The notes beneath the pieces are model-generated. The model was not told the origin of the DNA, did not search any database, and saw only the letters and a program-made list of their open reading frames with translations. From positions 1 through 64,000 of IMG/VR virus record IMGVR_UViG_3300043411_001114: a DNA stretch of 64,000 nucleotides; one strand, 5' to 3'. Position numbers and translations under genes: made by a program. Positions 3,689 through 29,422 of the stretch are shown here, one piece after another. Every line of letters starts with the position of its first letter. Position 1 is the first letter of the stretch. The stretch comes from a virus.

Positions 3689-3697
3689 TGCTATAAT
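3689..3697 (+). promoter_or_regulatory. SigA-type extended -10 promoter (leaderless transcript) of the endonuclease gene
   Basis: TGcTATAAT, 7 nt before ATG 3705, with no SD. Confidence 0.65.
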
Positions 3698-3704
3698 GGT
3701 TTTT

Positions 3705-4691
3705 ATGGCACCCGGAATAAAACACCCACGAAGAGGTGAGGCGCTGGAGTTGTGGCTCCAGGGGCACTCCTGCAGAAATATCGCGAAAATGCTTTCCGTC
3801 ACCGACAGGAGCGTTCGGGACTGGCGGGACGCGGATGGATGGCCAGAGCAAAAAATCACCCTTCCTAAGGGGTATGACTCAAGCGGTCGCAAGGAAAAAG
3901 TCGATGCCGAGTTTGCCGCCGTGCGTGAGGAACTTGCAGTCGTGTGGGAGAAATCCATTCAGCCAAGAAGGGTTGGAAGCACGGGAATAGTGATGCAGGG
4001 TTCCGCTCATCGAGTCGCCGAACATTTCGGCTGGTCTCCATCCAAGACAATCAAGTTCCTCAAAAGGGCGGGATTACTCACCCCCAGGCCGTCTAACAAG
4101 ACGCATGGAGGCAGGGCCGCCGAGCTGTTTGAATCGGGATGGTCTGTCCCCCGAATAGCGACCGAGGTCGAGGTTAGTGAAGACACGATAAGATCCTGGC
4201 TGAAAAAGCGAGGACTAGATCTGTCGAATCACCACGATCGCCGTTCACACGAGGAGAAAATCGCCTTCCGACAGGCAATCAGTGATGGCCGGGGCGGTTC
4301 GGTGGTGGGTAACGGAAGATTCAAATACAACGATGTCCGAATGGACTCCTCATGGGAAGTTCGTTTCGCCAAGAATCTCGACCGGCTCGGTGTCGAGTGG
4401 ACTGTATGGGATCGAGAGCGGGACGGCACCGTGGAGATTCCCGGCGAGGTCGTTGGCCGTTACTCCCCCGACTTCCTGGTCGGTGATCTTCCGGTGGAGA
4501 TTAAGGGTGTCTATGACGCCACGGCGGCTCTCAAGGTGTCCACCTGGCGTAAGGAGCGCGGCAGACTTGCGGTCGTGATGAGGAACGAGCTACTCGAACT
4601 GGAGTCAGCCAGAACCGCCGAGGAAGCCATCGCCATCCTCCAGGCCTTTTGTTACCTGGACCCTCCGGCCAGAAGGGATGGCTGGTCTTGA
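3705..4691 (+). CDS. Free-standing putative homing endonuclease (HTH repeats plus PD-(D/E)XK domain)
   Basis: HTH-like segments (RNIAKMLSVTDRSVRDW; PRIATEVEVSEDTIRSWL) and a C-terminal MDSSWE...YSPDF...VEIKG nuclease motif. GC is lower than in the flanks. Alternative start 3678. Confidence 0.7.
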   Translation: MAPGIKHPRRGEALELWLQGHSCRNIAKMLSVTDRSVRDWRDADGWPEQKITLPKGYDSSGRKEKVDAEFAAVREELAVVWEKSIQPRRVGSTGIVMQGSAHRVAEHFGWSPSKTIKFLKRAGLLTPRPSNKTHGGRAAELFESGWSVPRIATEVEVSEDTIRSWLKKRGLDLSNHHDRRSHEEKIAFRQAISDGRGGSVVGNGRFKYNDVRMDSSWEVRFAKNLDRLGVEWTVWDRERDGTVEIPGEVVGRYSPDFLVGDLPVEIKGVYDATAALKVSTWRKERGRLAVVMRNELLELESARTAEEAIAILQAFCYLDPPARRDGWS

Positions 4692-5275: not shown

Positions 5276-5330
5276 CCTGTCAACACCCCGACGGGCCTCC
5301 TCAATAGGTAGAACGAGGAGGCCCGTTTCC
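5276..5330 (+). promoter_or_regulatory. Late-promoter-like motif within a 12-bp terminator/RBS-sequestering hairpin
   Basis: CCTGT-N22-AATAGGTAG. Stem ACGGGCCTCCTC (5291-5302)/GAGGAGGCCCGT (5315-5326) contains the SD. Confidence 0.65.
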
Positions 5331-12591: not shown

Positions 12592-15188
12592 GCTACCGCA
12601 AACCCGTTGAGGCGCGTACTACCGCAGCGGAGTCCAAGACCTCCCCGGTCAACACCGATGTGGTGCCGCTCGTTGACGCTACGGGCAAGCTGAAGAAGCT
12701 GACGTGGCTGAACCTCAAGACCGCTATCTACCCTGATCGGATTTTCTTCGTAGATGACTACGGCGCTGACCCGACAGGTGCAGCGCCTTCCGGGGCTGCC
12801 TTGGAGGCGGCTCGTGCAGCTATGGGCACAGAACCGGGAATTATCGCCTTCGGTGTCGGCACCTATCTGATTGAGGAAGCTGGACTCAACGCGGAGAACA
12901 ACACATCTCTGGGTCTACGCCAGGGTGTGCGAGGCCAGGGTTCGGGAGCAACGAGGATCATCTACAACGGCGAGAACGCCTGCTTCGAATTCCGCAACCT
13001 GGACTGGGAGTTCAACACCGCATCAGAGCCTTCTGGCGGTATCCACGGCATGTGGATCTACGGCTGGGAGAACACCAACACCGACACCTACGGCATCCGG
13101 TATGGCGATATCGGGCGTATGCGTGTCAGTGATGTGCATATCGCAGGGTTCAATCAGGACGGCTGCGTAGGACTGTTCGGAGATAATCGGGTCGCCTGGG
13201 CTGAGCGCGGCGATATCGAATGTTCGGTAGAGCAATGCACCACCGCGTTCCTGTTCCAGGGGTGCATGCCTAACTCCTTACAGAGCTACGGCTCATCGTT
13301 TGACTACTCCAAGTACCGGCTGACGTTTGTTGTCATGCCAAACCAGGACGCATTCGTCTTGCGCTCACTTCCCGGCGGCATAAACACCCACATGAACGGT
13401 GTTGATCTAGCGCTAACCGGCAACTGCAACAACGCACCGCCGGGAGGGACTAACACCGGCACCCTGTTTAAGGTTGGACGGGACAACGAGGATGGAGCCG
13501 CTCTCTCTGGAGAGCTGCATGTGAACGTGGAAACCTCCGGGTACGTCGATGGGGTAACCCACTTCGACTTCTCTATGGGAGATGGCCCGTTCTGGGAAGT
13601 TCAATCCAGGGTATCGGCGTTTGGGTCAATCAACCTGATTCCGTTCTCTGGCACCAACTTCCGCGCTGGGACAGCCACACCCCGGACGTTCGCCTTCGCA
13701 GGGTTGCTGAAGAAGTCTCCAGCGTTCGGCTCGACCACCAACAGTCAGGCGTTTCAACCGCTGCAACTGCTTTCGCAGGCCAGAGGCGAGTATTGGATCG
13801 CCCCGACTAACGCCGTCCAGATGGTGTATCTGGTCGAGGCAACCGTCGGCACGTTCCGTTTGAATTATGACGGCGACTTGACTGATCCCATTCCGTATGA
13901 CGCTTCTGTAGCTGCCGTACAGACAGCTTTGGATGAGATACCGGGGTTGGCAGGCAACGTCACGGTGGTTAGTGCTCAATCGAGATTCGTAAACGGCTAC
14001 TACAACGATGAGACCGCTTACGGAATCACGTTTGGCGAGGCGCTGGCCGAGACAGATGTTCCTACGTTCACGGTTGACGATTCGGCTCTTACCGGCTCTG
14101 CCGAGGTAGTGGTTCGTAAACCCGGTAGCACCAACAAGACTCTCACTGCCCGGATCGAATCCGGCAATATCATCAAGATAGAGGAAACTCCGGGCGTTTA
14201 CCGGCTGGGTCTTGATATCGGTAACTTGACCGATCAGGTTGGTGTGGATAGGGATTCGCCGTTCGGCTTGACCGCCGTGGATATCTGGATCAAACAGCCG
14301 ACTACCGGCGGCAATGTTGTGTTGGAGGGTCCGTGGTTCCGGCCTAACGCACAGGCTGGTAGCACCTACACATTCCAGTGGTTCGACGGTATTGAGCCGG
14401 TGCTTTCCACAGAGCCAGATAAGTTCGACGTTATCCGTTTGTCTACCTACAACTTCAACGTGTGGGTCGGACAGCACATCACTAAGCCGATAGAGTCTGG
14501 CCCTCCGGGCGCTACCGGAGCTGTTGGCGCTACAGGTGCTACCGGAGCGTCAGGTATCCCCGGCGTTTCCGGCCCGGTTGGGGCCACCGGAGCTTCCGGC
14601 GCTAGCGGTGTGCCTGGCGCTAGCGGTGCTGGCGAGGATTTCATCAGGGCCATCGTCGGGGTTGGATCAACACAACTGACCACCGGCATTTTGACCATGC
14701 CGCGCCCGCAGGCCAATCGGGGAGCCTACAACTACGACGGTGTCGCTGACTCGACGCTGATGTTGACCTACGTCTACCCGTCCGAGGACATCGACATCGA
14801 CAACCTGATGTGTTTCACCCGTGAAGTTGGCACCGGGTCGCCGACGTTGGCGCAGATGGCGGTGTATTCCGTTGACCTGTTGGGTGATTTGACGTTGATG
14901 GCCTCGACCACCTCCGATACCGCTATCTTGACCACCGCCTGGTCGGGTCACTACAAGACGTTGAACACCACCGCCAGTCTGGTGGCCGGGTCGGTCTACG
15001 CTTTCGCGTTCCTCGGGGTGGGCACCACCACGATGCCCGGCTTCTACGGCATCAGCGGGCCATCAGGTGAGTTCGCACTCGACCCGCCGGTGTGCGGGAA
15101 GGTGGACTCCACCACCACGTTGCCGTCCACCGTCGACTTCGGCGACATCGACCCTATCGGTGTCGCGCTTTATATGCGTGGGTACTGA
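12588..15188 (+). CDS. Tailspike/receptor-binding protein (pectate-lyase-like beta-helix, collagen-like linker)
   Basis: GTGA overlap with the upstream stop; VDDYGADPTG beta-helix start motif; G-x-x repeats (GATGAVGATG). Confidence 0.7.
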   Translation: MSYRKPVEARTTAAESKTSPVNTDVVPLVDATGKLKKLTWLNLKTAIYPDRIFFVDDYGADPTGAAPSGAALEAARAAMGTEPGIIAFGVGTYLIEEAGLNAENNTSLGLRQGVRGQGSGATRIIYNGENACFEFRNLDWEFNTASEPSGGIHGMWIYGWENTNTDTYGIRYGDIGRMRVSDVHIAGFNQDGCVGLFGDNRVAWAERGDIECSVEQCTTAFLFQGCMPNSLQSYGSSFDYSKYRLTFVVMPNQDAFVLRSLPGGINTHMNGVDLALTGNCNNAPPGGTNTGTLFKVGRDNEDGAALSGELHVNVETSGYVDGVTHFDFSMGDGPFWEVQSRVSAFGSINLIPFSGTNFRAGTATPRTFAFAGLLKKSPAFGSTTNSQAFQPLQLLSQARGEYWIAPTNAVQMVYLVEATVGTFRLNYDGDLTDPIPYDASVAAVQTALDEIPGLAGNVTVVSAQSRFVNGYYNDETAYGITFGEALAETDVPTFTVDDSALTGSAEVVVRKPGSTNKTLTARIESGNIIKIEETPGVYRLGLDIGNLTDQVGVDRDSPFGLTAVDIWIKQPTTGGNVVLEGPWFRPNAQAGSTYTFQWFDGIEPVLSTEPDKFDVIRLSTYNFNVWVGQHITKPIESGPPGATGAVGATGATGASGIPGVSGPVGATGASGASGVPGASGAGEDFIRAIVGVGSTQLTTGILTMPRPQANRGAYNYDGVADSTLMLTYVYPSEDIDIDNLMCFTREVGTGSPTLAQMAVYSVDLLGDLTLMASTTSDTAILTTAWSGHYKTLNTTASLVAGSVYAFAFLGVGTTTMPGFYGISGPSGEFALDPPVCGKVDSTTTLPSTVDFGDIDPIGVALYMRGY

Positions 15189-16283: not shown

Positions 16284-16352
16284 CCTGTGTCCCACCCGAC
16301 GGGCCTTCTCAATAACTGAGGAGGCCCGTTTTTCTATGTCCCGTCGCATCAT
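16284..16352 (+). repeat. 69-bp direct repeat, copy 1 (promoter motif, hairpin, SD and start of leader)
   Basis: Identical to 18590-18658. Confidence 0.95.
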
Positions 16353-18234
16353 CACCGCCCGCGAGCAGGTTGCCATGCTCTCACCCTGGAGTCGCGAGGC
16401 CTTCATCAAGGTAGCGCGATACCCACAGGAGTGGCGCGCCGATGCCCCCTACGGGCGTTTCTCCAACTCGGGTCGCGCCCGCAACCGGCCGCCATCGGTT
16501 CGGGTTGATCCCGACGATCGCAGTGCGGGGATTATCGACCCGAGCGATATTCGCTATGAACTCCTGGGCGACTCGGTATCGGCCTACCACCCTAACGGCG
16601 CTCATCTCGGCAACTATTCGTGGGAAGAGGACTACCACAGCGGCGGTGCCCACATCGGCATCGCTCAGGTGCATCCCAAGTATCAGGGTCAGGGTGTCGC
16701 CGGTGGCATCATCGACCATATTCGAGAAAACTATCAACCCGAACTCGTTCACTCCGGACACCGAGGTGTCGGTTCGCTGAGCTATCAGGGCCGCGCCGGT
16801 GCCTTGCGCGACCTGGGCAACACCGAAGAAGAGCATAACGACTACTTCAACACCATCCCGTTCAACCACGGGAGCACCGAGCCTGCTGGTTTCGGGAATT
16901 TCGGCCCACCAACCGAGGAGCAACGGAAGGCTCATCTCGAATTGATGCAGCAATTCGAGGAAGACAGGCAGCACCCGAACTGGACGGGACGAACCAGCGA
17001 CAACCCTAACGACCCTGACCTGTACGACTACGATGGCGACCGTCACGAGTACGGGTACGACCATGCTGGCGACTACGTCGGACTGTCTTCCGGCGGCAAG
17101 GATTATGAGGGGTACAGCGAAGAGGGATACGACCATCGGGGCTATGACCGGGAGGGTTTTGACATCCATGGTTTCGATGACGAGAACTACGACCAGGAAG
17201 GCTTCCACGAATCGACGGGCCTGAACCGGGACGGGGAAACTCGGCACGGATACACCCCCGGCGACGGTACTCCTCCAGAAGGAACCGTCCCGATGAGTCA
17301 GATGGCATCCCACTGGGCGCAGAACGGGTTGCTGCCCCAAAACCCCGAGCACGAGCAAATGATGGACGATGCCGCCAATTTGGGCGTCGGCCAGACGATG
17401 TATGCCGTGCGGCGGTCACACGAACGCAGCAATCACACCGGGGAACATCACGTCGGCAATGGGGACACCCTCTACTCCTCGCTGGAGCGGGCGCGTCAGG
17501 TGGCCTACCACCCCAACGATCCCAGCAAGGACATGGACATCGTCAGCGCCGACTGGCTCGATCCCGATTATCTGCACACCGACGCATCGGGCGCGACCCC
17601 CGAAGACTTCCACTACGCCCCCGTATCAGGGGAGTGGGATGCCGAAAACACCGCCTCCACCCCGGCGAACATCGTCCACGACCCGCAGCGCCACCAGCGC
17701 ATCCTGGGCGACCTGGGACACGGATGGAATAAGGGCAATTTGCCCTATGGCAGCCATCCTAGTTTCGAATACACCGACCCGAATGGCGGTCGCAGTGGCC
17801 GCATGTGGCAGGAAACCGGCGGTATGTGGCGCACCGAACACGAGCCGCAGTTCGGCACCACAAAACGGGGATTCCATCACGACTACCGCACCGCTGCCGA
17901 CACCATCCTGGAAGGGACCCAACCCGGACCCCCTATGGAACACCACGCCCTGGAGGTCAACAATGACTACCGAGCCTCTGGCGGCGGCGAGGTCGACTGG
18001 GAGCCGCACCCCAGCGGTCAGGGTCTCACGGCGCGAACACCTCACGGCGACCTTAATCTAGTTCAGGACCAAAATACGGGCCGATGGAACTGGCACGCCG
18101 GTCCGCACGGACATCAGCCCGGAGACGACGGTGGTGTTCAAGGCAGGTTTCCCCACAGCCTCAATCACGCCGCCGAAGAAGGTATACGAAGAATCACCGC
18201 AAGACCTTTTCATGGGGGGCAGCTTCATGGATAA
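16336..18234 (+). CDS. Leader-tagged multidomain protein with GNAT acetyltransferase domain and GYD repeats
   Basis: MSRRIITAREQVAMLSPW leader; GNAT motif A VHPKYQGQGVAGGII; GYDxx/GFDxx repeats. Confidence 0.7.
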   Translation: MSRRIITAREQVAMLSPWSREAFIKVARYPQEWRADAPYGRFSNSGRARNRPPSVRVDPDDRSAGIIDPSDIRYELLGDSVSAYHPNGAHLGNYSWEEDYHSGGAHIGIAQVHPKYQGQGVAGGIIDHIRENYQPELVHSGHRGVGSLSYQGRAGALRDLGNTEEEHNDYFNTIPFNHGSTEPAGFGNFGPPTEEQRKAHLELMQQFEEDRQHPNWTGRTSDNPNDPDLYDYDGDRHEYGYDHAGDYVGLSSGGKDYEGYSEEGYDHRGYDREGFDIHGFDDENYDQEGFHESTGLNRDGETRHGYTPGDGTPPEGTVPMSQMASHWAQNGLLPQNPEHEQMMDDAANLGVGQTMYAVRRSHERSNHTGEHHVGNGDTLYSSLERARQVAYHPNDPSKDMDIVSADWLDPDYLHTDASGATPEDFHYAPVSGEWDAENTASTPANIVHDPQRHQRILGDLGHGWNKGNLPYGSHPSFEYTDPNGGRSGRMWQETGGMWRTEHEPQFGTTKRGFHHDYRTAADTILEGTQPGPPMEHHALEVNNDYRASGGGEVDWEPHPSGQGLTARTPHGDLNLVQDQNTGRWNWHAGPHGHQPGDDGGVQGRFPHSLNHAAEEGIRRITARPFHGGQLHG

Positions 18235-18322
18235 CATCGGCAAATAACCTACCAGCCGCTGGTGTTGTGGTACAATTAAAGTTAAATAACAAACCACCGC
18301 CACCCACAAGGAGACTGCACTC

Positions 18323-18571
18323 ATGAGTGAACTCAAGATCGTTGGCCCATCCTCTCCTAGAGGAGATTCCGAAACAAAGATACTCAAGCTGGTTCAGGGC
18401 GATCAGGTTCTCGGGCAACTCGTCTACTACGATTCTACTCGAACTGTGGTTGAGGTGAGACCCTGGGAGGGTCCGATCTACGAGCGGCTCGTCCGGGAAG
18501 CCAAGGCTCGCGGTCTGCTGCACGGCAAAGACATTCCCGACCACCTTCAGCACGACCGGGAACACCTGTGA
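18323..18571 (+). CDS. Small hypothetical protein, early-type promoter
   Basis: TGgTACAAT at 18268-18276, CA-rich leader, AAGGAG SD. Confidence 0.75.
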   Translation: MSELKIVGPSSPRGDSETKILKLVQGDQVLGQLVYYDSTRTVVEVRPWEGPIYERLVREAKARGLLHGKDIPDHLQHDREHL

Positions 18572-18589
18572 CTGTCTTTCCCTGATTCA

Positions 18590-18658
18590 CCTGTGTCCCA
18601 CCCGACGGGCCTTCTCAATAACTGAGGAGGCCCGTTTTTCTATGTCCCGTCGCATCAT
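18590..18658 (+). repeat. 69-bp direct repeat, copy 2
   Basis: Identical to 16284-16352. Confidence 0.95.
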
Positions 18659-19226
18659 TACCGCCAGGGAACAACTGGCAATGCTCTCCCCGTGGCGGCG
18701 GCTGGCCGAGCGGGTCACCGACTTTCGGTGGGAGCGCAGTTTCAGTGGCGGCGGCGGTTGGGACCTGATCGTCCGCAACCCTGACGGGAATCCGGTTCGG
18801 GTGGTCACCGAACGGGCCACCGGGCAGCGCACCAGCGCGGTGACCCTACCCTACATCCGCAACAACACCGGGGTCAGGCAATACTCCCGGGGCGACGACT
18901 TCGGCCAGCAGCACGAGCCGTGGGGTCGCTACATGTCGCCCGGGCCAGACCAGGAGTCAGACCTCCACCACTACCCCGTGCAGTCGGGATGGGAGCGGGG
19001 TACGGTCGACTTCTCCAACCCGCTCTACATTCCCCACGAATACGGCGACTGGAAGCAGAACCTGGCCGAACAGTACGGGGCGACCGGACGCCAGTTGTCG
19101 GAAAAGCTCCTGGCCGACGGCTACGACGGGGTGATCAGCCACGACAAGTACGGCATCGGCGAGATTGTCGACGTCCGGCCTAAAGGACAGCGGGGCCATC
19201 GCCCCTCGATAGGGGGCGGGTTATGA
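18642..19226 (+). CDS. Leader-tagged ADP-ribosyltransferase-like protein
   Basis: Leader MSRRIITAREQLAMLSPW; YIRN...GRYMS...FSNPL...L...GYDGVI...GEIV pattern. Confidence 0.55.
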   Translation: MSRRIITAREQLAMLSPWRRLAERVTDFRWERSFSGGGGWDLIVRNPDGNPVRVVTERATGQRTSAVTLPYIRNNTGVRQYSRGDDFGQQHEPWGRYMSPGPDQESDLHHYPVQSGWERGTVDFSNPLYIPHEYGDWKQNLAEQYGATGRQLSEKLLADGYDGVISHDKYGIGEIVDVRPKGQRGHRPSIGGGL

Positions 19227-19393
19227 CATTCGAGGCCGTGGCCACGGTAGTGGTCTGTACGGTATGGCTCCTGGTGTTCGCCTGGCTCCTGGCCGGACTG
19301 CGGGACCAGGAGATGCCAAAACCCCAAGATCACCCCTCAAATGGTGAGGGGATTCCCGTCCTCCGATTCATCTTCACCTTAGGAGCCACCATC

Positions 19394-19771
19394 ATGTCTG
19401 CCCTCGAATCCGCCCTGGCCCGACTGAACACCTTCGTCCGCGACGTGGTGACCCAGCTGGGGGTCGCCCGAGACACCAACGCCACCCAGACCGAGAAGCT
19501 GGCCGAACTGCAAGCCAAGCTGGCCGAGGCCCTCTCCGACGACGACGCCGACAAGGCCGCCATTGTGGCGCTGCAGAACGAGGTGTCCAGCCTTCAGGAT
19601 GCGGTGGCGGCCCAGATCAACGCCGCCATCGACTCGCTGGAGAACGTCCCGGCAGCCGAGGACGTCGTCGCCGACTCTCCGGTCGAGGAGGCCCCGGTCG
19701 AGGACGAGGTGTCCGACGAACTGGTGGTCGTCGAGGACGAGGCTCCGATCGAGGACAAGCCCGCCGAATAA
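19394..19771 (+). CDS. Acidic coiled-coil hypothetical protein (possible in-frame upstream start at 19223 adds a TM helix)
   Basis: AGGAG SD before ATG 19394; heptad pattern. Confidence 0.7.
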   Translation: MSALESALARLNTFVRDVVTQLGVARDTNATQTEKLAELQAKLAEALSDDDADKAAIVALQNEVSSLQDAVAAQINAAIDSLENVPAAEDVVADSPVEEAPVEDEVSDELVVVEDEAPIEDKPAE

Positions 19772-19852
19772 TCTCTCACAGCCTTCCCAGTGGGTGGGAA
19801 GAGGGGGATTGATTAGATGTGAGCCACCCGTCGCTCCATCAGTTCTCCCCCA

Positions 19853-19900
19853 CAGGAAGCGGGCCTCTCCCCTCCCCGGACAGGCCCGCTTCCTTCTGTT
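19853..19900 (+). terminator. Probable intrinsic terminator
   Basis: AGGAAGCGGGCCT...AGGCCCGCTTCCT followed by TCTGTT. Confidence 0.6.
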
Positions 19901-20091
19901 CTGTTAATGACCAAACCGAAACCGGTGACTTCGTGCTGTAGCTTTTCGGGCCGGACAGGAGTAGTTCTGAACAGGAGAAGCCTTGAGGGAAGCACCCCAG
20001 AGTTGGGGTGATTTGCATGTATTACTCAATTCTTCGACAATAAAGTTATAGAGGGAAGAAAAAACTCTTTCTTCCCCACATGAAGTGGAGA

Positions 20092-20343
20092 ATGGAAATG
20101 CCATCTACCGATAACGGGCAGACGGCCATGCACACCTACCTCGTGACACTGGCCGACCGGGAGACCGGGCAGGATCAGCGCATCCTGGTGCAGTCCGCCG
20201 ACGACCAGGGGATGCAGGAGTTCGTCACCTCCGATCAGGTGCTCCCCTCGTTGAACCTGACCAATCCGGTGGTGATTGCCGTCCACCGGCTCAACATCAA
20301 GCGCTCCTACAAGACGGTGATGGCCACCCACTCCCGGCCGTAG
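20092..20343 (+). CDS. Small hypothetical protein (start uncertain)
   Basis: High-GC3 codons over most of the frame; GGAG upstream. Confidence 0.6.
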   Translation: MEMPSTDNGQTAMHTYLVTLADRETGQDQRILVQSADDQGMQEFVTSDQVLPSLNLTNPVVIAVHRLNIKRSYKTVMATHSRP

Positions 20344-20428
20344 CCGGACGCGACCCTGTAGGAGGGATGACTAGGCTCCTGAACAGGTGAGGGACAACAC
20401 CTCACCCTAGTGAAGGAGCCATATAGTC

Positions 20429-21103
20429 ATGACCACACCCACCCAGGCGCGTAAGTCGCTGCGCGAACTCCGCGAGTCCACGGGGACCCTGTTCGCGAAG
20501 AACAACACCGCCACCAAGATCACCTGCAACACCGAGACCGTCAGCTTCGAACTGGAGCCTGCCGGGTACGACGACTCGATCCGCATCGTCCCCAAGGAGT
20601 GCCTGAACGTCCCGGGATTCCAGCGCCTGTGGATGCGCAACGCGGTCTCGATCTCCGACGACGAGCGCATGGAGAGCGAGATCACCCTGCTGATGGGCGG
20701 CCAGGTCGCCTTCACCCCCAAGGTGTTCACGGTCGACGATACCGGTGCCCAGATCGAGGTCGAGGCCGAACTGACCGAGAACCCGGCGAGCCGCGACTTC
20801 GTCATGAGGGAGTCGGGCGACCCGACCGGGCGCGACTATGCGATCCAGACCGAGCAGAAGTGCATCGTCTCCGGCCAGCCGGTCTACATGACCCAGAAAC
20901 AGATCGACGACGGGGAGCCGCCCCTGCATCCCGACTACGCCTCCGAGCGTAGCCGCATCGTGTCGACCCCCAGCCACGACGGCACCTGGACTCATCAGCT
21001 CGTCAACATCGAGCCGGTGACACCCGCCACCCCGGCGGAAATCAAGCCCCCGGCCAAGCGGGGTCGTCCGCGCAAGAGCGTGAGCACCAGCAGCGCTAGC
21101 TAG
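20429..21103 (+). CDS. Hypothetical protein at the start of the neck operon
   Basis: GAAGGAG SD; late motif at 20355-20390; AT-hook-like KRGRPRK tail. Confidence 0.75.
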   Translation: MTTPTQARKSLRELRESTGTLFAKNNTATKITCNTETVSFELEPAGYDDSIRIVPKECLNVPGFQRLWMRNAVSISDDERMESEITLLMGGQVAFTPKVFTVDDTGAQIEVEAELTENPASRDFVMRESGDPTGRDYAIQTEQKCIVSGQPVYMTQKQIDDGEPPLHPDYASERSRIVSTPSHDGTWTHQLVNIEPVTPATPAEIKPPAKRGRPRKSVSTSSAS

Positions 21104-21120
21104 ATGAGAGAGAGAAAATC

Positions 21121-21402
21121 ATGACCGATCTGAGTCCGTTCGCCGACTCGGTGTACGCCCAGCCGGGTCTGACCCACCTGGTTCGCAACTACGACACCCG
21201 CCCCCTCCAGGGACAGAGTCCCCTGTCGGCGGTGGCCGAGCCGTCGGCTCAGGCGGTCGCCGCCGAGGCCTCCTCCCTGGAAGCCGCTGCGGCGACCGGG
21301 GTGGACAATCCCAGCACGACCCGGGCCGAGATGACGTCGCACAGCGATGCCTACGTCAACTTCTTCGACTCGACCACCATCAACCGCAACTACACCGGCT
21401 GA
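21121..21402 (+). CDS. Hypothetical protein
   Basis: 93 aa with operonic spacing and codon bias. Confidence 0.7.
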   Translation: MTDLSPFADSVYAQPGLTHLVRNYDTRPLQGQSPLSAVAEPSAQAVAAEASSLEAAAATGVDNPSTTRAEMTSHSDAYVNFFDSTTINRNYTG

Positions 21403-21486
21403 CAACCCGAGACGACCACCGCCCCGTCTGCCTGACGTACCCAGGTTCGGGCGGGGCGGTGGTCTCCCGCCATCAAGGAGGTCCCG

Positions 21487-22452
21487 GTGCCCACGAATTA
21501 CCCGGCCGGTTTCGATGAGTTCATCGAGCCGACCCAGCCCGAGAACATTCCGCTGTCCCAGGCCGGGACGGGGAATTTCAACCACGTCGAGTCGCACACC
21601 AACATGGGTGATGCGATTGAGGCCCTGCAGCACTACGCCTCAATCCGCAGTCACGACCATTCCGGTGCCGGTACCGATCCCACCAAGGGGGCCAAGCTCA
21701 AACAGGCCAACACCCACCAGGATGCCGACACAGACACCTCCGTATCTGCCCTGCACCACACTCTGGGCACCGGTGCCTACCAGGCCGCTCCCGGTAACCA
21801 CACCCACGACTACGACGACGGGTCGATCACCAACGCGCCCTATATCCGGTGCACCTCATCGACCAGACCGGCCAGCCCGACCTCGGGCCTGACCATCTAC
21901 GAGACCGACACCAACCGGATGCGGGTCTGGAACGACTTCGGCAACGGCAACCGGTGGAATATCCTGCCGACCGCCACAATCCCAATCGTCCGGCTCTCCC
22001 AGTCGATCGCCCAGACCATCAGCCCCTCGGGCAGCGCGATCCAGTGGAACGAGGAGATCGAAGACAACTTCGGTTACTTCAGTTCGGGAAGCCCGACCGC
22101 GATCACGGTCACCGAGCCGGGTGTTTACCAACTAGACGCGGCCCTGCAGTGGAGCGTGAACTTCCTGCCCGAGGTGGCGGTGGTGGTCGCCTGCATCAAC
22201 GGGATCGAGACCGTGCTGCGCAACTCGTCGCTACAGACCCGCCCCGGCCTGCTCAGCCTGCTAGGGGTCACCATCAACCCCGACTTCTCCCAGACCCTGG
22301 CTATCTCCGGCAAGCTGCGGGTGGGCCTTGGCGACGTTATTACCCTGAAATGCCGTTACGGAGGCTCCTCCATCATCGGCACCATCAACACCTACTTCGA
22401 CATCAACTCGCGCGTGAAGTCCCGGCTGGAACTCAGCTACGTCGGCCCCTGA
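21487..22452 (+). CDS. Putative head/neck fibre (HxH repeats, C1q/TNF-like C-terminus)
   Basis: SHDH, LHH and NHTH motifs; ITVTEPGVYQLDA...LRVGLGDVITL jelly-roll pattern. Confidence 0.55.
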   Translation: MPTNYPAGFDEFIEPTQPENIPLSQAGTGNFNHVESHTNMGDAIEALQHYASIRSHDHSGAGTDPTKGAKLKQANTHQDADTDTSVSALHHTLGTGAYQAAPGNHTHDYDDGSITNAPYIRCTSSTRPASPTSGLTIYETDTNRMRVWNDFGNGNRWNILPTATIPIVRLSQSIAQTISPSGSAIQWNEEIEDNFGYFSSGSPTAITVTEPGVYQLDAALQWSVNFLPEVAVVVACINGIETVLRNSSLQTRPGLLSLLGVTINPDFSQTLAISGKLRVGLGDVITLKCRYGGSSIIGTINTYFDINSRVKSRLELSYVGP

Positions 22453-22473
22453 TTCGGCTAGGAGAGCATCACC

Positions 22474-23478
22474 ATGACGGAGCCTATCTTCGGCGACGAG
22501 GTCTACAGCCAGAAGCTGGTAAGTCAAGCCAAGGCCCGCAAGTTCGTCTCGCAGAATGGTCGCGGCTATGTCGCGATCGGCATCGTCGACGGCTCCCAGA
22601 CCCCGATCGACCCCGACACCGACACCCTGGTGCTCAAGGTGTGGCGAAACAACCTCACCGACCCCGATCCCGACGACGAGCGGGGGGTGCTGGTCATCGA
22701 CACCGGCGAGTCGGGATCGCCCCAGCCGGTGCGTGACGATGTCGGCAAGTTCCGGTTCGACATCGGCCCGGCCTGGACGGGGCAGCGGGGCCTGCTCTCG
22801 GTCGAGTGGACATACCAGGTCGGCGGCACCGACTTCGCCTTCCAGGACAATCTTCAAATCCTGGAGCAGATGCCGAACTACGAACTGCTGTCCGACTCGA
22901 CCAAAATGATGGTCGAGCAGGCCTCCTGGTTCTTCGCCGACCTGTTCGACTCGACCACCGGCGGCCCCTGGCTTCAGGAGAACTTCCAGACCCACTTCGA
23001 CTACGACCGGATGGCCTTCCTGCTGCGGATGGCGACCATGAAGTTCAACGTCACCGGTTACCCGGTCACCCAGTTCGGGGTCTCCAAGGACGACAAGGCG
23101 ATCCCGGGCAACTTCACCGAATTGATCCTGTGGGGAACCAAGCTGGAGGCGATCCGGCACCTGATCACCTCCTACACCGAGATTCCCGACTTCCGCAACA
23201 TCCAGACCACCTACACCGACCGGCGCGACTACATGCAGCGCTGGCAGGCGGTTCTGCAGGACGAGAAGCCCGACTATGAGAAGGCCGTCAAGATGAGCAA
23301 GCGGAGCCTGCTCAGTCTGGGTCGCGGCTCGCTACTGGTGGCCGGAGGAATCTACGGCGGTTCGGCGAGAGGAATCTTCATCTCGGGAATGTACAGCGCG
23401 ATGGCCCGATCGGCCCGGTTCTACCCGGCCGCCCCGAGCGTCTCGTTCGGTAACCAGGCCTTCGGATTGCCGAGGTAG
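22474..23478 (+). CDS. Putative head-to-tail adaptor
   Basis: Position upstream of neck and sheath genes; size 334 aa. Confidence 0.55.
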   Translation: MTEPIFGDEVYSQKLVSQAKARKFVSQNGRGYVAIGIVDGSQTPIDPDTDTLVLKVWRNNLTDPDPDDERGVLVIDTGESGSPQPVRDDVGKFRFDIGPAWTGQRGLLSVEWTYQVGGTDFAFQDNLQILEQMPNYELLSDSTKMMVEQASWFFADLFDSTTGGPWLQENFQTHFDYDRMAFLLRMATMKFNVTGYPVTQFGVSKDDKAIPGNFTELILWGTKLEAIRHLITSYTEIPDFRNIQTTYTDRRDYMQRWQAVLQDEKPDYEKAVKMSKRSLLSLGRGSLLVAGGIYGGSARGIFISGMYSAMARSARFYPAAPSVSFGNQAFGLPR

Positions 23479-23483
23479 TCGTC

Positions 23484-24383
23484 ATGGGCCGCCGCATTCT
23501 GACCGCACGGGAACAGCACGAGATGCTGTCCCCGTGGCGGCTGGGCATGCCCTGGCGCACCGAGCACCCCGACTACCAGCCCGCTGACGTGGCTCACAAT
23601 TACAACCCCGACATCGGCGGTGCCCAGGGCGGCGGCGGCCACAAGAACTACCTCGTCGGCCCGGCCAACAATGTGTGGTGGCACGGCAGCGGTTCGGGTG
23701 ACATTGGTGGCGGTGACGCTGATTTCGGTCTGCATGTCGGTGACTACCAGACCGCAGCAGACAACCTCAACGCCCGCCTGGGTCTCAACCCCAAACATCC
23801 CCAAGGGCGGTGGACAGGGCAACACTCATTAGCCGAGGCCCACCCGGATAGCTATGACGAGAACGGCAACTCAGTCCCCAACCACATGGGCTATCACCGT
23901 TTCACCCACTCCGACGGCAGCCCAATGCATGGAAGCTATAAGCCCAACGTCTTCCCCCTGGCCATCGTCGGCCCGATGGGCAACACCACCGACACCGCCG
24001 TGTCCGACGGGCAGGCTCATGCCCTGATACGCCGCCAGCGCACCCGACCACCGAAGACCCCCAAGGGGTACTACTACATCAACGCCGGGGAGGGCGACGG
24101 CGTCAGTCCCGAGACCGGGATCGTCAGTGCCGTGTCGGCTGCAGTCCCGTCAGTCAGCCACATTCAGAAGCTCGACCCGGCGGAGCATGAACACGTCGCC
24201 CAGGAAGCACACAATAACTGGTACGAATACAAATACAACAATCCTAACAAAGGTTCCTACGACATGTCGAAGGTGGACGGCATGCCACCGACGTCGATGG
24301 AGAGATACCAAGAACTCCAAAGGCAGAGAAAAGAGCAGGAAAACGGTGCCCTGGAATGGCGTCGGCGTAGGAGAGGTAACTGA
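23484..24383 (+). CDS. Leader-tagged ADP-ribosyltransferase-like protein
   Basis: MGRRILTAREQHEMLSPW leader; VWWHGS...GLHVG...A...YYYINAGEG pattern. Confidence 0.5.
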   Translation: MGRRILTAREQHEMLSPWRLGMPWRTEHPDYQPADVAHNYNPDIGGAQGGGGHKNYLVGPANNVWWHGSGSGDIGGGDADFGLHVGDYQTAADNLNARLGLNPKHPQGRWTGQHSLAEAHPDSYDENGNSVPNHMGYHRFTHSDGSPMHGSYKPNVFPLAIVGPMGNTTDTAVSDGQAHALIRRQRTRPPKTPKGYYYINAGEGDGVSPETGIVSAVSAAVPSVSHIQKLDPAEHEHVAQEAHNNWYEYKYNNPNKGSYDMSKVDGMPPTSMERYQELQRQRKEQENGALEWRRRRRGN

Positions 24384-24979
24384 TGGCCAGATTGGACCTC
24401 ACCGAGCCGTATTCAATCCGGCTGGCGAGGGAGTCAATCCGGGACAGCCTCCGCTCGCACGGCGAGGAGTGTGTGCTGCTGCACATGCATCACGTCAACG
24501 AGGCCCAGGACGTCGTCCCCCGCTGCCCGGACTGCTACGACGATGTTTACAAGCAGGGCGAACGCTACGACTGCTCGCGGTGCTACGGAACAACCTTCGA
24601 CGGCGGTATAGCTCAGGCGTATCGGGCTTGGGGATTGTTCACCGATGCCCAGGATGCCGAGACCTTCGGCAAGCGCGGTATGTGGCACCCGATCGCCTCC
24701 AGCATCCAGACCGAGCACCTGCCCGACCTCTGGCAGCGCGACTATGTGATCCGGGTCGGGCGGTGGAGCGTCGACCATCGGGTCGAGGAAGTCGACGGCA
24801 TCTACGTCTTTAAGCAGGTCGCCAACGAGAGCCTGCGCACCGGTGGCATGCGCGGCCAGACCCTCTACGACACCATCGCCCAGCGGGCCGACATACAGTT
24901 GATCGCCGAGAACATGCCGATCCACCAGTACCCGATCAAAGGTGTTCGGTTCGACCGGTTTGACGGCAAGGATCGGTGA
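24383..24979 (+). CDS. Putative head closure/neck protein with zinc finger
   Basis: CPDC...CSRCYGT motif; neck-region position. Confidence 0.55.
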   Translation: MARLDLTEPYSIRLARESIRDSLRSHGEECVLLHMHHVNEAQDVVPRCPDCYDDVYKQGERYDCSRCYGTTFDGGIAQAYRAWGLFTDAQDAETFGKRGMWHPIASSIQTEHLPDLWQRDYVIRVGRWSVDHRVEEVDGIYVFKQVANESLRTGGMRGQTLYDTIAQRADIQLIAENMPIHQYPIKGVRFDRFDGKDR

Positions 24980-25158
24980 TGGCCGTCCTGTCGAGAACCT
25001 CCCGCACCACCCTGCAGCGTGACATCACCGAGGCACTGCTACGCCTGAAACTGGCCAGGGCGACCAGGGACGGCAAGGAAGAACTAGCCCAGCAGGAGCG
25101 GCTCAACCGGCTGCTGGATCGTCTCGCCCGCGACCTGGGTTTGGGGGAAAAAGAATGA
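24976..25158 (+). CDS. Small helical hypothetical protein
   Basis: Start/stop overlaps on both sides. Confidence 0.6.
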   Translation: MMAVLSRTSRTTLQRDITEALLRLKLARATRDGKEELAQQERLNRLLDRLARDLGLGEKE

Positions 25159-25655
25159 CCAGACGTGTCATCACCGCCCGCGAGCAGGTCGAGATGCTGG
25201 CCCCGTGGCGGCGTGTGGCCGCTGGCGGCAAAGTGTATCGGGGATTTGACCTGAAAATGCCTCCCGATCTGGAGGCTCTCTACCACCGCCATCTCCAGAT
25301 GCCAGAAGACGAGTCTGAGATCGACCAGCACTACAAACTGGCTGATCCCCTTCTTGACCACCTAGAGGCCAACACCAGTCTGGCCAATGACCACCCTGGC
25401 ATCGGCCCCAACTGGAGCCACAGCAGGCACATGAGCCAAGAGTTCGCCAAGGGCGGCAAGCACTACCCGGTGATGGTTGAGGCCGACCATCCAGGCGATG
25501 AGCACATTGACCCTGACCGCCGACCTTGCACCAGCGAGCAAGAGATCAACTATCGACCAGGAACCCCCGTTAACGTCACCGGCCTGTATGTTCCTAATCC
25601 CTTTCAATCGGGATGGCTGAACGTGCTGCAGCAACCCCAGGCAAGGAGCACCTGA
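25155..25655 (+). CDS. Leader-tagged R-S-E type ADP-ribosyltransferase-like protein
   Basis: MTRRVITAREQVEMLAPW leader; KVYRG...GPNWS......FA...EQEI. Confidence 0.65.
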   Translation: MTRRVITAREQVEMLAPWRRVAAGGKVYRGFDLKMPPDLEALYHRHLQMPEDESEIDQHYKLADPLLDHLEANTSLANDHPGIGPNWSHSRHMSQEFAKGGKHYPVMVEADHPGDEHIDPDRRPCTSEQEINYRPGTPVNVTGLYVPNPFQSGWLNVLQQPQARST

Positions 25656-26434
25656 TGACCAGACGTGTCATCACCGCACGCGAGCAGGTCGAGATGCTGG
25701 CACCCTGGCGCACGGCCACCACAGAGCCAGGAGAAGGTTTCCCAATCACCGACGCCGGGTTCACCCCCCGCAACGACAACGGACGGTGGGATTACCGATA
25801 CAACCCTGAGCTTCAAAAGAACGAGTATCACAACTGGGGTGTCCACCCCCAGTCAGCGCCCGCCTCCAAAACTGATCAATTCTACGGCCGAACCAAGACC
25901 GTTTATTACGACCCTGAACTCACCGACATGGGAAGAGATGACCTCCACTTCATCCCTTCATATCTCGGGAATGACATCACTGACATGAACCCGCCTACAG
26001 GGATGCTGTGGCGGGGCATGAGCAAAGAGGAGTACGAAGAAGCCGGGCAACGCGGCTACTTCCAGTCCAGAGGAGACGCCAATATAGGCGACAGCCAGGT
26101 CGGTAAAACTTACTTTTCCACCAACGCCGACTCTGCCGGGAGCTACGCCTCTGGTTTCGCCCTCCCCGAGCATAAACCGACCTTCACCCATCCCGGCTAT
26201 GTGGTGGGCATCCCTGACCGGCCAGAGCTTCCTCGTGAAGGAGGGCATGAAGTCGGTGTTCCCGGCCAGATTCCGTTTGATTCGGCCACCCATCACTACC
26301 GGGTGCGCCCAGTATCCATCACCCCGGGAAGCCGGGGGATGTACAAGGAGTGGAACGGATGGAGCCAGGCAGGGGGTTCCCACCCCGGAGCCTTATATCA
26401 CTGGGAACCCCACAAGCCGGGAGGTTCTGCATGA
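25655..26434 (+). CDS. Leader-tagged R-S-E type ADP-ribosyltransferase-like protein
   Basis: AAGGAG SD and TGATG overlap; same leader; LWRGMS...TYFST....A.SYA...HEVGV. Confidence 0.65.
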   Translation: MTRRVITAREQVEMLAPWRTATTEPGEGFPITDAGFTPRNDNGRWDYRYNPELQKNEYHNWGVHPQSAPASKTDQFYGRTKTVYYDPELTDMGRDDLHFIPSYLGNDITDMNPPTGMLWRGMSKEEYEEAGQRGYFQSRGDANIGDSQVGKTYFSTNADSAGSYASGFALPEHKPTFTHPGYVVGIPDRPELPREGGHEVGVPGQIPFDSATHHYRVRPVSITPGSRGMYKEWNGWSQAGGSHPGALYHWEPHKPGGSA

Positions 26435-26886
26435 CCAGAATCCCAGCCCCCGCAGACCTCACCAACACCATCGCCAACCGGGCGATGCAGAACGCCCGGC
26501 GCGACATCGTCAAGCGGGGCTGGAAGTCGGCCACGGCGCTGCGCCCCTACGCCACCGAGGGGTCTGTCGGCATCACCTCGACCGTCAACCACCTACTGAT
26601 CCAGAACAAGGGCTTCGACCCCTTCGTCATGTGGTGGGTAAAGAATCGGGTCGTACCGCTCGGCTGCCCGATGGGCGACGGGCCGCACTTTCGCAACGGG
26701 TCGGGGGTGGGCACCCCGGGCATGGTCGACATCCCCCACAAAGGCAAGGTATGGCGTCCGGTTCGGTGGCGTCACCCGGGCCTGCAACCGAAACGATTCA
26801 TGGAGACCTCCATCACTCAGGCGATCAAGGACAGCAAGGCCGACATTCGCAAATCGGTGATGATGACCCTGCGGGGAGGACGCTGA
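26431..26886 (+). CDS. Putative neck/tail completion protein
   Basis: ATGA overlap; basic protein with W.HPG..PKRFME motif typical of the HK97 gp10-like class. Confidence 0.6.
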   Translation: MTRIPAPADLTNTIANRAMQNARRDIVKRGWKSATALRPYATEGSVGITSTVNHLLIQNKGFDPFVMWWVKNRVVPLGCPMGDGPHFRNGSGVGTPGMVDIPHKGKVWRPVRWRHPGLQPKRFMETSITQAIKDSKADIRKSVMMTLRGGR

Positions 26887-26887: not shown

Positions 26888-27658
26888 ATGCCCACCGACT
26901 TAGAGCCGCCCTGGCCGTCAGACCCTGCCGGGCCGACACCAGACCCCGCCGCCCGGACCAACGCCGAACTCCCCGGTGCGGGCGGTTCAGGCATGATCGA
27001 GACCGTCAAGAGGGCGATCATGAACGCCCTTAGGGAGGCCTTGTCGGGCAGTACGCTCAATCATCTGGTGAACGGCACCAACGTCACCATCGACATGGAG
27101 TACCCGATCGAGAAGGAGAACTACCCGGGAATCTGGGTCCAGTTCTCCTTCTCTGAAATCACCCAGGCCGGTCTCGGTCACGAGCCGCTGATCAAGAACG
27201 TCCTGGAAGAAGCGACCGAGAATACTCCGGAGGTCGTCAACTGGGAGCCGGTCAGGGAGTTCCAGTTCAAGGGCAGAATCACCCTAAGCATCGTCGCGCT
27301 AACCAGCCTGGAACGCGATCGGCTTGCCGATGCGGTGGTCACCATGCTGGCCTTCTCCCGGCCGCCGTCGATGGTTCTGACCAACCCGGCCGAGGACACC
27401 AGGCAGTTCCGGCAGTTCATCACCAGCCTCGCCGAGAACCCGTATGTTTCAATCAGCGTCAACCATGACCAGATCATCCCCGGCGGCCAGGCGATGACCA
27501 CCGGCGTCCCGTGGGACGAGGAGATTCCCGGCTACGAGGACTCCTACTCCTTCGACATTCTCGGCCAGACCAACATCGTCTTTCGTCACGACGGGACCTA
27601 CAGTCTGCGCAACGTCGTGGAGACCCCGGAGATGCTCACCCAGTACGACTGGCAATAA
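26888..27658 (+). CDS. Putative tail terminator
   Basis: Immediately upstream of the sheath gene; YP.I.V pattern. Confidence 0.55.
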   Translation: MPTDLEPPWPSDPAGPTPDPAARTNAELPGAGGSGMIETVKRAIMNALREALSGSTLNHLVNGTNVTIDMEYPIEKENYPGIWVQFSFSEITQAGLGHEPLIKNVLEEATENTPEVVNWEPVREFQFKGRITLSIVALTSLERDRLADAVVTMLAFSRPPSMVLTNPAEDTRQFRQFITSLAENPYVSISVNHDQIIPGGQAMTTGVPWDEEIPGYEDSYSFDILGQTNIVFRHDGTYSLRNVVETPEMLTQYDWQ

Positions 27659-27727: not shown

Positions 27728-29422
27728 ATGGCCATCGACTTCACCCGCTATCGTCCGCCCGGCGTCTACACCGAGTCCATCGGCGGACCCCAGCTGGCGG
27801 TGCGCTCCTCGGTGCCCACGGCGGTCGCCTTGTTCGGCCTCAGTGTCGGATACCGATCCTACCGCGAGTCGATCCGCATCAATCCTGACGTCCTCGACGA
27901 CGAGGGCGATCTGGTGCCCGCCACCAATGCCCCGCTGTCCCGGCAGGGCATCAAGGTCATCACCGGCAGCCCGGTCATCTACGCGACCGCCAACATCGAC
28001 CTCGCCTCGCCGGGCGCTCCGATTGATGGCCTGCTACCCGACAACACCGAGGGCGAGGTCACCCCGACCACCGGCCAGTTGGTGTATCTGACCAACCAGA
28101 CCAAGCCGACCGAGAACGGTGTGTACGAGTTCCGGGGGTCCACCACCCCGCTACGGGTGGTCGTCGACACCCTCAAGGTGATCAACCCCGACACCGGCTA
28201 CGTCTACATCAACGGACTCGACTACACGGTCACCCTGGTAGATGCCAACGCCGAGTTCGATGACGTCGAGACGAGCACCGACGTCCAGGCCCGCAACAAC
28301 CTCTACACCATCAAACGCCGCAACCGGGGCGACGGGGTGGGAATCCAGGAGGGCGACATCGTCTCGGTCTCCTACCGCTACACCGACCCCGACTACTTCG
28401 AGGTCTACTCGCTCTACGACTACGATGACGTCCGCGAGGTGTACGGCGAGCCGTTCGACTCGTCGGGCAATATCCGGTCGGAGTTGTCGCTGGCCGCCAA
28501 GTTCGCGTTCCTCAACGGTGCCTCCACTGTCCTCACCTGCGCGGTCGACCCCGAAGACCCGGACAACCCGACGATGGGCGACTACGAGAACGCCCTGTCG
28601 AAATTCCGTGACGAGGAACAGATCGCCATCATCGTCCCCGCCACCGGTTCCTCGGAAATCCAGCAGCTCGTGCAGGACCACGTCGCCAGCCAGTCGAACA
28701 ACAAGTACGAGCGTCGGGCGATCATCGGTGTCGACGGATCGTCCTCGACGATCAGCACCGCCACCCGTATCGACTACGCCCAATCGCTGTCCGACCAGCG
28801 GATTGCCCTGGTCAGCCCGAGCCGCTTCCACTACTTCGCGCCGGAGTTGAACAAGAAGATCACTCTCGGCGGGCAGTACATGGCGGCCGCAGTCGCCGGT
28901 AAGTCTGTCTCGCAGATTCCGGCCATGCCCCTGACCCGCAAGGTGATCTCCGGTTTCGCCGGGGTCGCCGAGAACATGCGGGAGGGTGAGAAGAACCTGG
29001 AGTCCCAGAACGGCCTGATGGTCATCGAGAAGACCCGCCGCAACCAGATCCAGGTGCGTCACGGGGTGACCACCAACTCGACCGACCTGCTGACCCGGGA
29101 GTGGTCGATTATCGGCCAGCAGGACGTCATGGTATACCGCATCCGGGACTACCTGGACGCCGACGGCCTGATCGGTATGCCGATCTACGACACCACCCTG
29201 ATTCAGGTCAAGGCGTCGGCCGAGGCGGCCATGGTGTCCCTGGTGCGCGACGGAGTGATCGTCGGCTACCAGAACCTCAAGGTTCGCCAGTTGTCCACCC
29301 TGCCGGACGTGATCGAAGTTCGATACGAGTGGAAGCCCGCCTACCCGCTCAACTACATCGTCGTCCGATACTCGGTCGCTGTCATGACCGGCGACGTGGT
29401 CGTCACCGAATCTTCGACCTGA
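27728..29422 (+). CDS. Tail sheath protein
   Basis: Y.PPGVYTE N-terminus, VRHGVTT, and C-terminal PAYPLNYIVVRY. Confidence 0.92.
   Translation: MAIDFTRYRPPGVYTESIGGPQLAVRSSVPTAVALFGLSVGYRSYRESIRINPDVLDDEGDLVPATNAPLSRQGIKVITGSPVIYATANIDLASPGAPIDGLLPDNTEGEVTPTTGQLVYLTNQTKPTENGVYEFRGSTTPLRVVVDTLKVINPDTGYVYINGLDYTVTLVDANAEFDDVETSTDVQARNNLYTIKRRNRGDGVGIQEGDIVSVSYRYTDPDYFEVYSLYDYDDVREVYGEPFDSSGNIRSELSLAAKFAFLNGASTVLTCAVDPEDPDNPTMGDYENALSKFRDEEQIAIIVPATGSSEIQQLVQDHVASQSNNKYERRAIIGVDGSSSTISTATRIDYAQSLSDQRIALVSPSRFHYFAPELNKKITLGGQYMAAAVAGKSVSQIPAMPLTRKVISGFAGVAENMREGEKNLESQNGLMVIEKTRRNQIQVRHGVTTNSTDLLTREWSIIGQQDVMVYRIRDYLDADGLIGMPIYDTTLIQVKASAEAAMVSLVRDGVIVGYQNLKVRQLSTLPDVIEVRYEWKPAYPLNYIVVRYSVAVMTGDVVVTESST

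Follow-up and report, generated by a model that had tools for sequence, protein, structure and literature searches.

In phage T4 a capsid-targeting sequence (CTS) stands at the N terminus of IPI-III and Alt; its targeting residues are N-terminal, its processing residues lie at the end, and it has affinity for the scaffolding core (PMC9026906). T4-related phages carry varied CTS-bearing proteins (PMC9026906). Here we describe a 22-residue leader that opens five proteins, named LP1 to LP5, of a Bixzunavirus-like myovirus (cluster C mycobacteriophage; best nucleotide match, Tonenili). They are encoded in the window, which is the whole stretch of DNA analysed, namely the first 64 kb (positions 1 to 64,000) of the 112-kb IMG/VR viral record IMGVR_UViG_3300043411_001114. 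We lean towards the reading that the leader is a head-targeting propeptide of the T4 CTS type, which would be clipped by the head protease and be portable across Bixzunavirus-like actinophages.

The leader resembles the T4 CTS in that a short N-terminal peptide is found on otherwise unrelated proteins of one phage, and in the predicted order of its parts, with targeting first and the putative processing site last; the T4 cargos include an injected ADP-ribosyltransferase (ART). The two peptides have no sequence similarity, however, and the leader comprises 22 residues rather than 10. Its putative cut site is R-x-A-[A/S] or I-E-A as opposed to L/I-x-E, and the candidate protease is the N-terminal domain of a protease-scaffold fusion that is unmatched by the Pfam model of T4 gp21. 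The host is actinobacterial, and the cargos include multi-domain proteins of up to 1,375 aa.

The leader proteins also resemble the polyvalent proteins, in which ART, GNAT, ParB-like, metallopeptidase and lytic domains are combined, whose genes accompany late or head genes and for which injection is predicted (PMC5512222). That work defines no common N-terminal header, whereas the window has single-domain genes with leaders of their own. The same study, by Iyer, Burroughs, Anand, de Souza and Aravind (2017), proposed a capsid deployment of solo GNATs that mycobacteriophage Alice encodes among its late genes (PMC5512222). The initial annotation, made from the letters of the window, knew of no description of such a tag in actinophages. 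This stands for the leader itself, since no paper describing it was found in the literature on packaged or CTS-like proteins in mycobacteriophages and other actinophages, but not for the deployment of enzymes in the capsid, which had already been suggested for Alice.

In the MuF-domain polymorphic toxins of temperate phages and in the P1 Dar antirestriction system, the N-terminal part is conserved and serves trafficking, whereas the C-terminal effectors, which are carried in the head, vary. Trafficking in these systems relies on a whole structural domain or on dedicated assembly partners, whereas here a 22-residue peptide would serve, and Pfam searches gave no MuF (Phage_Mu_F) match among the 27 + 145 leader proteins described below. 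Encapsulin cargo-loading peptides are likewise short and address diverse enzymes to the inside of an HK97-fold shell, as is proposed for the leader, but they are usually C-terminal and uncleaved and bind the shell protein directly.

The consensus of the leader is M-x-R-R-I-V-T-A-R-E-Q-[VHY]-E-M-L-S-P-W-R-x-A-A, and conservation stops thereafter. In the window it takes the form M-x-R-R-[IV]-[IVL]-T-A-R-E-Q-x-[EA]-M-L-[SA]-P-W, followed mostly by R-x-A-A. Five otherwise unrelated open reading frames (ORFs) starting with one peptide had been reported in the initial annotation, and both parts of this statement hold. The quoted peptides are confirmed at the starts of all five ORFs (16336, 18642, 23484, 25155 and 25655), and a pairwise BLASTP comparison of the bodies without the leader gave nothing significant (all E >= 0.2). 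As it had also observed, similarity does not extend beyond a semi-conserved R-x-A-[A/S/M], which occupies positions +12 to +15 counted from the Thr of TAREQ. When the leader was searched for as a degenerate DNA pattern, the forward 112-kb record gave five matches and its reversed control none, and searching the record with a leader profile returned exactly LP1 to LP5. AlphaFold2 (AF2) models of LP5 and LP4 place the leader outside the fold, as a short helix that a low-confidence linker connects to the body.

The leaders of LP4 and LP5 differ at nucleotides 24, 48 and 51 of the first 56, all three differences being synonymous, from which it had been proposed that the peptide is under selection. 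The wider comparison bears this out. Across 29 leaders from this and related phages no change is seen in the residues T, A, R, E, Q, L, P and W, while synonymous sites vary; all of these residues but W, which has a single codon, use every codon available to them, CGN as well as AGG for Arg and CTN as well as TTG for Leu. Selection therefore acts at the level of the peptide. A Tat signal peptide was considered for the leader and rejected: S/T-R-R-I-V is present, but R, E, Q and E follow at once and there is no hydrophobic core, and the intact internal leaders described below also contradict this reading.

A 33-column profile of the leader matched 224 representatives at E <= 1e-3 among 1.84 billion proteins, two of these matches being repeat artefacts; the proteins range from 33 to 1,375 aa. 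The leader lies within the first residues in 133 of 143 occurrences. It is present in 211 of 50,697 deposited phage records, comprising 204 Mycobacterium, 6 Gordonia and 1 Mycolicibacterium phages, all of which are ~150-kb myoviruses, and an exact-pattern scan of IMG/VR yielded 27 distinct leader proteins at 18 loci. In Tonenili three genes of the head module begin with the leader, and its leader proteins include gp239, gp240 and gp245; in Alice the leader is found on gp98 (in a variant form), gp99 and gp115. The tag thus reaches many unrelated bodies far beyond the window, and the modular tag first proposed from five genes is upheld as an N-terminal leader that is selected as a peptide and belongs to the late virion module of a single lineage. 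Distant relatives retain only the first half, M-x-R-R-I-V-T-A-R-E-Q. A strict DNA pattern detected the leader in 4 of 28 related records, a low count that the profile search showed to be a limit of sensitivity; leader-like N termini occur in 15 of the 28 relatives with a protease homologue and in none of the most distant relatives, which have a stand-alone protease.

All leader loci with enough flanking sequence encode a capsid protein 83–90% identical to that of the window, and they have the cement protein and the large upstream protein in common with it as well. Throughout the loci compared, leader genes are confined to the late virion module, where they occupy two hot spots, one directly 3' of the capsid gene, where most relatives have them, and the other between the conserved genes that precede the tail sheath gene. 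The location of all five window genes among virion genes, as the initial annotation had it, is confirmed by the capsid gene starting at 2539, the fibre-like genes at 7063 and 12459, the sheath gene at 27728 and the conserved genes between them. Since the genes on either side of LP3, LP4 and LP5 adjoin one another in Tonenili, the leader genes are insertions. They form, together with their neighbours in the window, a chain of overlapping stops and starts, an arrangement that suggests co-translation with late structural proteins. At the loci compared, the leader genes have structural genes as neighbours but no conserved non-structural partner gene beside them. The capsid protein family comprises 1,182 clusters at 90% identity, the best 120 being 78–100% identical to the query; a family so large and so uniform indicates that this actinophage lineage is abundant in metagenomes.

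The proteins behind the leader are of enzyme type and extensively shuffled. Pfam searches of 145 leader representatives identified GNAT in 14, DUF7178 in 8 and ParB_N in 2, with SLT, glutaredoxin, DUF7251 and Arr-like domains in one each. The 139 bodies fall into 104 full-length architectures, yet a shared module of any kind links 110 of them into one network. A single 1,021-aa leader protein (L016:3449-6511) contains Arr-like, SprT-like and several GNAT domains. Behind one leader, P0103 combines modules like LP5, like LP4 and like the N-terminal part of LP2, while P0006 combines an LP5-like module with the whole LP2 body; P0141 likewise has window-type cargo domains under a single leader, and LP4-like and ParB-like domains are joined in P0129 and P0061. 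The combinations that define polyvalent proteins are thus found in relatives (L016:3449-6511, P0103, P0129 and P0061), whereas the five proteins of the window are mostly single-module. There is one leader per polypeptide whatever the number of domains, and if these domains are distributed over several genes, as they are in the window, every gene has a leader of its own. In three giant ORFs (P0012, L018 and L022) intact leaders are located at internal module boundaries, and the last unit is a stand-alone protein elsewhere; hence the leader works per polypeptide or module and does not need a free N terminus. The types of cargo would fit injected effectors or polyvalent proteins. As a separate observation, a module with the motif P-W-R-S-K-P-G-D-P-T-Y directly follows the leader in L024, L023 and P0024, and in Alice gp117 (L026 21264-22064) it lies behind an unrelated 19-residue N terminus.

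A candidate for the protease that would process the leader is encoded in the same lineage. The N-terminal 230 residues of Tonenili gp249 (L001:1027-4737) match phrog_18299, 'head maturation protease', with E 7e-21, and one His and one Ser are invariant in an alignment of 42 homologues of this domain. The C-terminal ~400 residues of the fusion protein are scaffold-like in position and composition. Only the C-terminal part is retained in the window (655 aa, 1–1968; on the + strand, as are the genes described below for LP1 to LP5, the DUF7178, cement, capsid and sheath proteins and the phrog families), where the gene runs off the start of the contig and the tail of the protein contains R-T-A-A and R-L-A-A motifs. 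The motif R-[TVIL]-A-[ASG] is present in the last 30 residues of the protease-scaffold protein at 22 of 34 loci (~3% expected from the local background) and directly after the leader W in 33 of 136 representatives (0.1% expected), although both counts are inflated by shared ancestry, the sequences being homologous rather than independent events. The two protein classes have nothing else in common. In one sub-lineage I-[EQ]-A follows the leader in place of R-x-A. The shared end motif is likely to be the cut site of the head protease. A capsid propeptide cut at the same motif was rejected, as the capsid N terminus is without it.

The fusion protein (also L018:6848-9733) has a variable middle with an L5 gp82-like domain and an endolysin- or tape-measure-like segment, and a strongly conserved tail, ...A-A-N-D-P-x-N-D-S-x-L-F. 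The most distant relatives encode the protease on its own, as a protein of ~185 aa. No match to PF03420, the family of the T4 gp21 type (S77), was found in the window's record or in complete Tonenili, and a PDB sequence search with the protease domain returned nothing. A faint resemblance to the core of the leader, R-R-I-V-T-A-R-E-Q, is seen in the N-arm of the capsid protein (residues 34–46), which reads [RK]-K-L-S-A-R-[ED]-K-Q; the likeness of so short a segment could be coincidental, or it could reflect mimicry, by the leader, of a part of the capsid protein that binds the scaffold.

From these comparisons we infer a pathway of docking, cleavage, packaging and injection. Leader-bearing polypeptides would be made late in infection, along with the head and neck proteins. 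The leader would be bipartite, its deeply conserved N-terminal half docking the protein to the interior of the prohead and its end serving for processing; candidate docking receptors are the scaffold part of the protease-scaffold fusion and the highly conserved capsid protein. The head maturation protease would then cut at the R-x-A-[A/S] that ends the leader, as it may also do in the scaffold tail, and the freed enzyme would stay in the head, enter the next host with the DNA and modify host targets there. Among the enzymes, ART-fold, GNAT, ParB-like, transglycosylase and glutaredoxin domains would be delivered in this way, singly or in multi-domain 'polyvalent' combinations.

Several points weigh against this pathway. 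A search of the cluster C phage literature found no virion proteome, N-terminal sequence or injection data for any member, and the docking receptors named above are candidates only. The assignment of the protease comes from one PHROG family, with no Pfam match to S77, S78 or ClpP in the window's record or in complete Tonenili. The cut specificity of the protease is our inference, and R-[TV]-A-[AS] is missing from the capsid N terminus in 117 of 120 sequences; the motif counts, as stated, are inflated. Two of the five cargos, LP2 and LP3, are without an assigned fold. Finally, leaderless paralogues exist, namely Alice gp117, Alice gp113 (a GNAT named in PMC5512222) and the window's DUF7178 gene, whose leader is decayed, so the tag is not obligatory for these domains.

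The same paralogues, by showing that the domains can exist untagged, lend something to the idea that the leader is a recognition tag in the producing cell, through which a chaperone, an inhibitor, a modifying enzyme or a host protease reading it as a degron would control the timing or toxicity of the enzymes. N termini of the Met-basic-hydrophobic type resemble one class of ClpX recognition signals, which would suit such a role. However, the leader genes have no conserved non-structural partner gene beside them, the intact internal leaders of the giant ORFs argue against a degron that depends on a free N terminus, and neither the link to the virion module nor the motif shared with the scaffold tail is explained, so that we regard this alternative as unlikely. 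Docking might instead occur elsewhere in the virion than in the head (neck, tail lumen or baseplate), with the proteins as tail-borne accessories, and in the window the leader genes are indeed bounded by fibre-like genes on one side and by those just ahead of the sheath gene on the other. Yet it is the capsid gene that they directly follow in most relatives, and the end motif is common to the tail of the scaffold-protease protein, which is located inside the prohead. The cargos, moreover, are enzymes of cytoplasmic type rather than binding or fibre domains, ARTs needing NAD+ and GNATs acetyl-CoA, and ParB-like and glutaredoxin domains occur among them too; a tail or neck location is in our estimate decidedly improbable.

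A last alternative denies the peptide any function and takes the shared 5' end as a DNA-level recombination or gene-capture cassette consisting of a promoter, a ribosome-binding site and the first codons. It could account for the about 70 bp of identical DNA, including a hairpin and a Shine-Dalgarno sequence, upstream of LP1 and LP2, and for the similar hairpin 5' of the DUF7178 gene. Upstream DNA is common only to these two of the five leaders, though, the other three being preceded by unrelated sequence, and in-frame leader copies are conserved in the interior of ORFs. The free variation of synonymous codons around residues that stay invariant across 29–143 copies essentially excludes a cassette of this kind. 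The head-targeting propeptide is our preferred reading.

What would be new is a CTS-like system of unrelated sequence, found in actinophages whose head protease and scaffold are fused; the original interpretation of the leader is partly supported. A bolder form of the head-targeting reading, to which we give somewhat less than an even chance, is that the first ~22 residues are both required and enough for any protein to be loaded into cluster C phage capsids (Bxz1, I3, Alice, Tonenili and many uncultured relatives). More than 100 rapidly shuffled architectures, with ART, GNAT, ParB-like, lytic and redox enzymes, would be carried by this route into mycobacteria and other actinobacteria, and the system would be of CTS type, built around the protease-scaffold fusion, of an origin independent of that of T4, and of use as a tag for protein delivery to mycobacteria. 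The cluster C phages Bxz1 and I3 have long been in laboratory use with Mycobacterium smegmatis, yet about a dozen of their virion-module genes are still 'hypothetical'. If head targeting is correct, a role could be assigned to these genes and to hundreds of metagenomic relatives, and candidate injected enzymes for host takeover or anti-defence with actinobacterial targets would be revealed. The T4 solution of a cleavable targeting peptide with polymorphic cargo would then have a counterpart of unrelated sequence in an unrelated head-assembly system, and the leader would offer a simple tag for packaging reporters or enzymes in mycobacteriophage heads.

Among the cargos of the window the clearest assignment is that of LP5 (25655–26434), which has 259 aa from the ATG at 25655 and consists of the leader (25655–25720), a beta-rich N-terminal domain and an ART-fold domain at residues 114–257. 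In its AF2 model (mean predicted local distance difference test, pLDDT, 78) residues 114–257 superimpose on Tpt1 with VIA Z 9.6 and a root-mean-square deviation (rmsd) of 2.6 over 89 aligned residues, and on A1 chains of the LT/cholera type with Z 8.5–7 over 104–107 aligned residues at 21–23% identity. The best 50 fold matches are all ART folds, including pertussis S1, TreX/TreTu and DarT. Within the family W-R-G-M-S, T-x-F and E199 are invariant, and R120, T152, F154 and E199 are constant in nine homologues. The predicted structure of LP5 clearly has an ART fold; enzyme activity is predicted only.

LP4 (25155–25655, 166 aa) has the leader at 25155–25220, followed by an ART-like domain. Its AF2 model (pLDDT 79) superimposes weakly, with a best Z of 6.0 and an rmsd of 3.3 over 83 aligned residues, although nearly all of the best 50 fold matches are ART folds. 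Y-R-G is invariant in the family and a downstream E-x-E is partly conserved, and with moderate confidence we consider LP4 to be ART-like. An hhalign comparison of the LP4 and LP5 families matched only a shared 45-aa mini-module and not the ART cores. Compared with the ARTs of the R-S-E clade (T4 Alt/ModA/ModB, cholera/LT-type A1 chains, Rhs TreX/TreTu) and with Tpt1/KptA, LP5 is alike (Z 9.6–7) and LP4 less so. Like the R-S-E enzymes, LP5 carries Arg in strand 1, is rich in S/T in strand 2 and possesses a conserved Glu, but it has this one conserved Glu rather than a Q/E-x-E pair, and unlike known ARTs neither LP4 nor LP5 matches a Pfam ART model. The initial annotation had counted four cargos with ART-like motifs and one with a GNAT motif. 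Structure prediction and fold searches sustain this fully for LP5 (Z 9.6) and weakly for LP4 (Z <= 6.0), and LP1 is a probable GNAT, while LP2 and LP3 have no support from hidden Markov models (HMMs).

LP1 (16336–18234, 632 aa) comprises the leader (16336–16401) and a 610-aa body, the N-terminal part of which is probably a GNAT acetyltransferase and the rest of which is rich in H, D, G and Y. Residues 108–133 match motif A of Acetyltransf_7 in Pfam below threshold (E 0.02), and residues 78–132 resemble the cargo L012:4087 (BLASTP E 4e-4), which itself passes Acetyltransf_1. A homologue of LP1 in L021/P0018 is 62% identical. LP2 (18642–19226, 194 aa) is composed of the leader (18642–18707), a mini-module of ~45 aa (18708–18842) and a C-terminal domain that is found fused behind an LP5-like domain in P0006. 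The mini-module (residues 23–67; F-x-W-E-R ... G-G-G-W-x-L ... P-D-G-N-P-V ... T-E) recurs in P0103, P0146, P0004, P0141, P0058, P0067 and P0009, either directly after the leader or at the C terminus of ART-like cargos, and could be a second adaptor or a linker domain. LP3 (23484–24383, 299 aa) has the leader (23484–23549) and a 277-aa body, lies between two conserved genes that are adjacent in Tonenili, and has a sole homologue, P0051, at 77% identity. Protein language-model comparisons gave weak leads to ART-PolyVal for LP2 (0.90) and LP3 (0.85), but Pfam and PDB searches provided no HMM or sequence support for an ART fold in either, and the ART-PolyVal and Arr-ms models had no match in the window's genome. 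Pfam, NCBIfam and PHROGs identified almost nothing in the five cargos of the window, and PDB sequence searches with the LP5 profile, LP2, LP3 and the DUF7178 protein gave nothing credible.

The DUF7178 protein of the window (5331–6950; DUF7178, E 1.5e-9) begins with a decayed leader, V-S-R-I-I-R-A-T-S-K..., whereas homologues in related phages have an intact one; that of L012:2972-4081 aligns from residue 1. From this alignment the gene looks like a natural case of tag loss. A hairpin at about 5290–5330, 5' of this gene, is related to the two identical hairpins that precede LP1 (16298–16335) and LP2 (18604–18641). The latter are terminator-like, with a 14-bp stem and a T run, end 5 nt before the ATG, and contain the Shine-Dalgarno sequence GAGGAGG within the 3' arm. 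Through such hairpins, translation of a cargo gene may be coupled to termination or to RNA structure.

The window also encodes further genes of the virion module. The gene for the fusion protein is followed by those for a capsid cement protein (2003–2536; PF23968, E 1.6e-97) and the major capsid protein of HK97 fold (2539–3540; PDB 6wkk, phage G gp27), the latter being 78–100% identical across the leader-bearing lineage. Hot spot 2 is flanked by the conserved virion-module gene phrog_2791 (22474–23478). The start of phrog_2806 (24383–24979) overlaps the stop of LP3, and the ATG of phrog_2819 (26431–26886) overlaps the stop of LP5 (ATGA). It is followed by phrog_2748 (26888–27658), directly before the tail sheath gene (27728–29422; PF04984). 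Directly 3' of the capsid gene, at the site where relatives carry leader genes, the window has an inserted gene (3678–4691) with two helix-turn-helix (HTH) or terminase-small-like domains (HTH_23 and Terminase_5). Two very large fibre-like proteins are encoded between the DUF7178 gene and LP1. One is a protein of 1,842 aa (7063–12591) with C-terminal ConA-like/Laminin_G_3 repeats, and the other (12459–15188; ~870–909 aa) has a pectate-lyase-like N-terminal part and a collagen-like G-x-y stretch.

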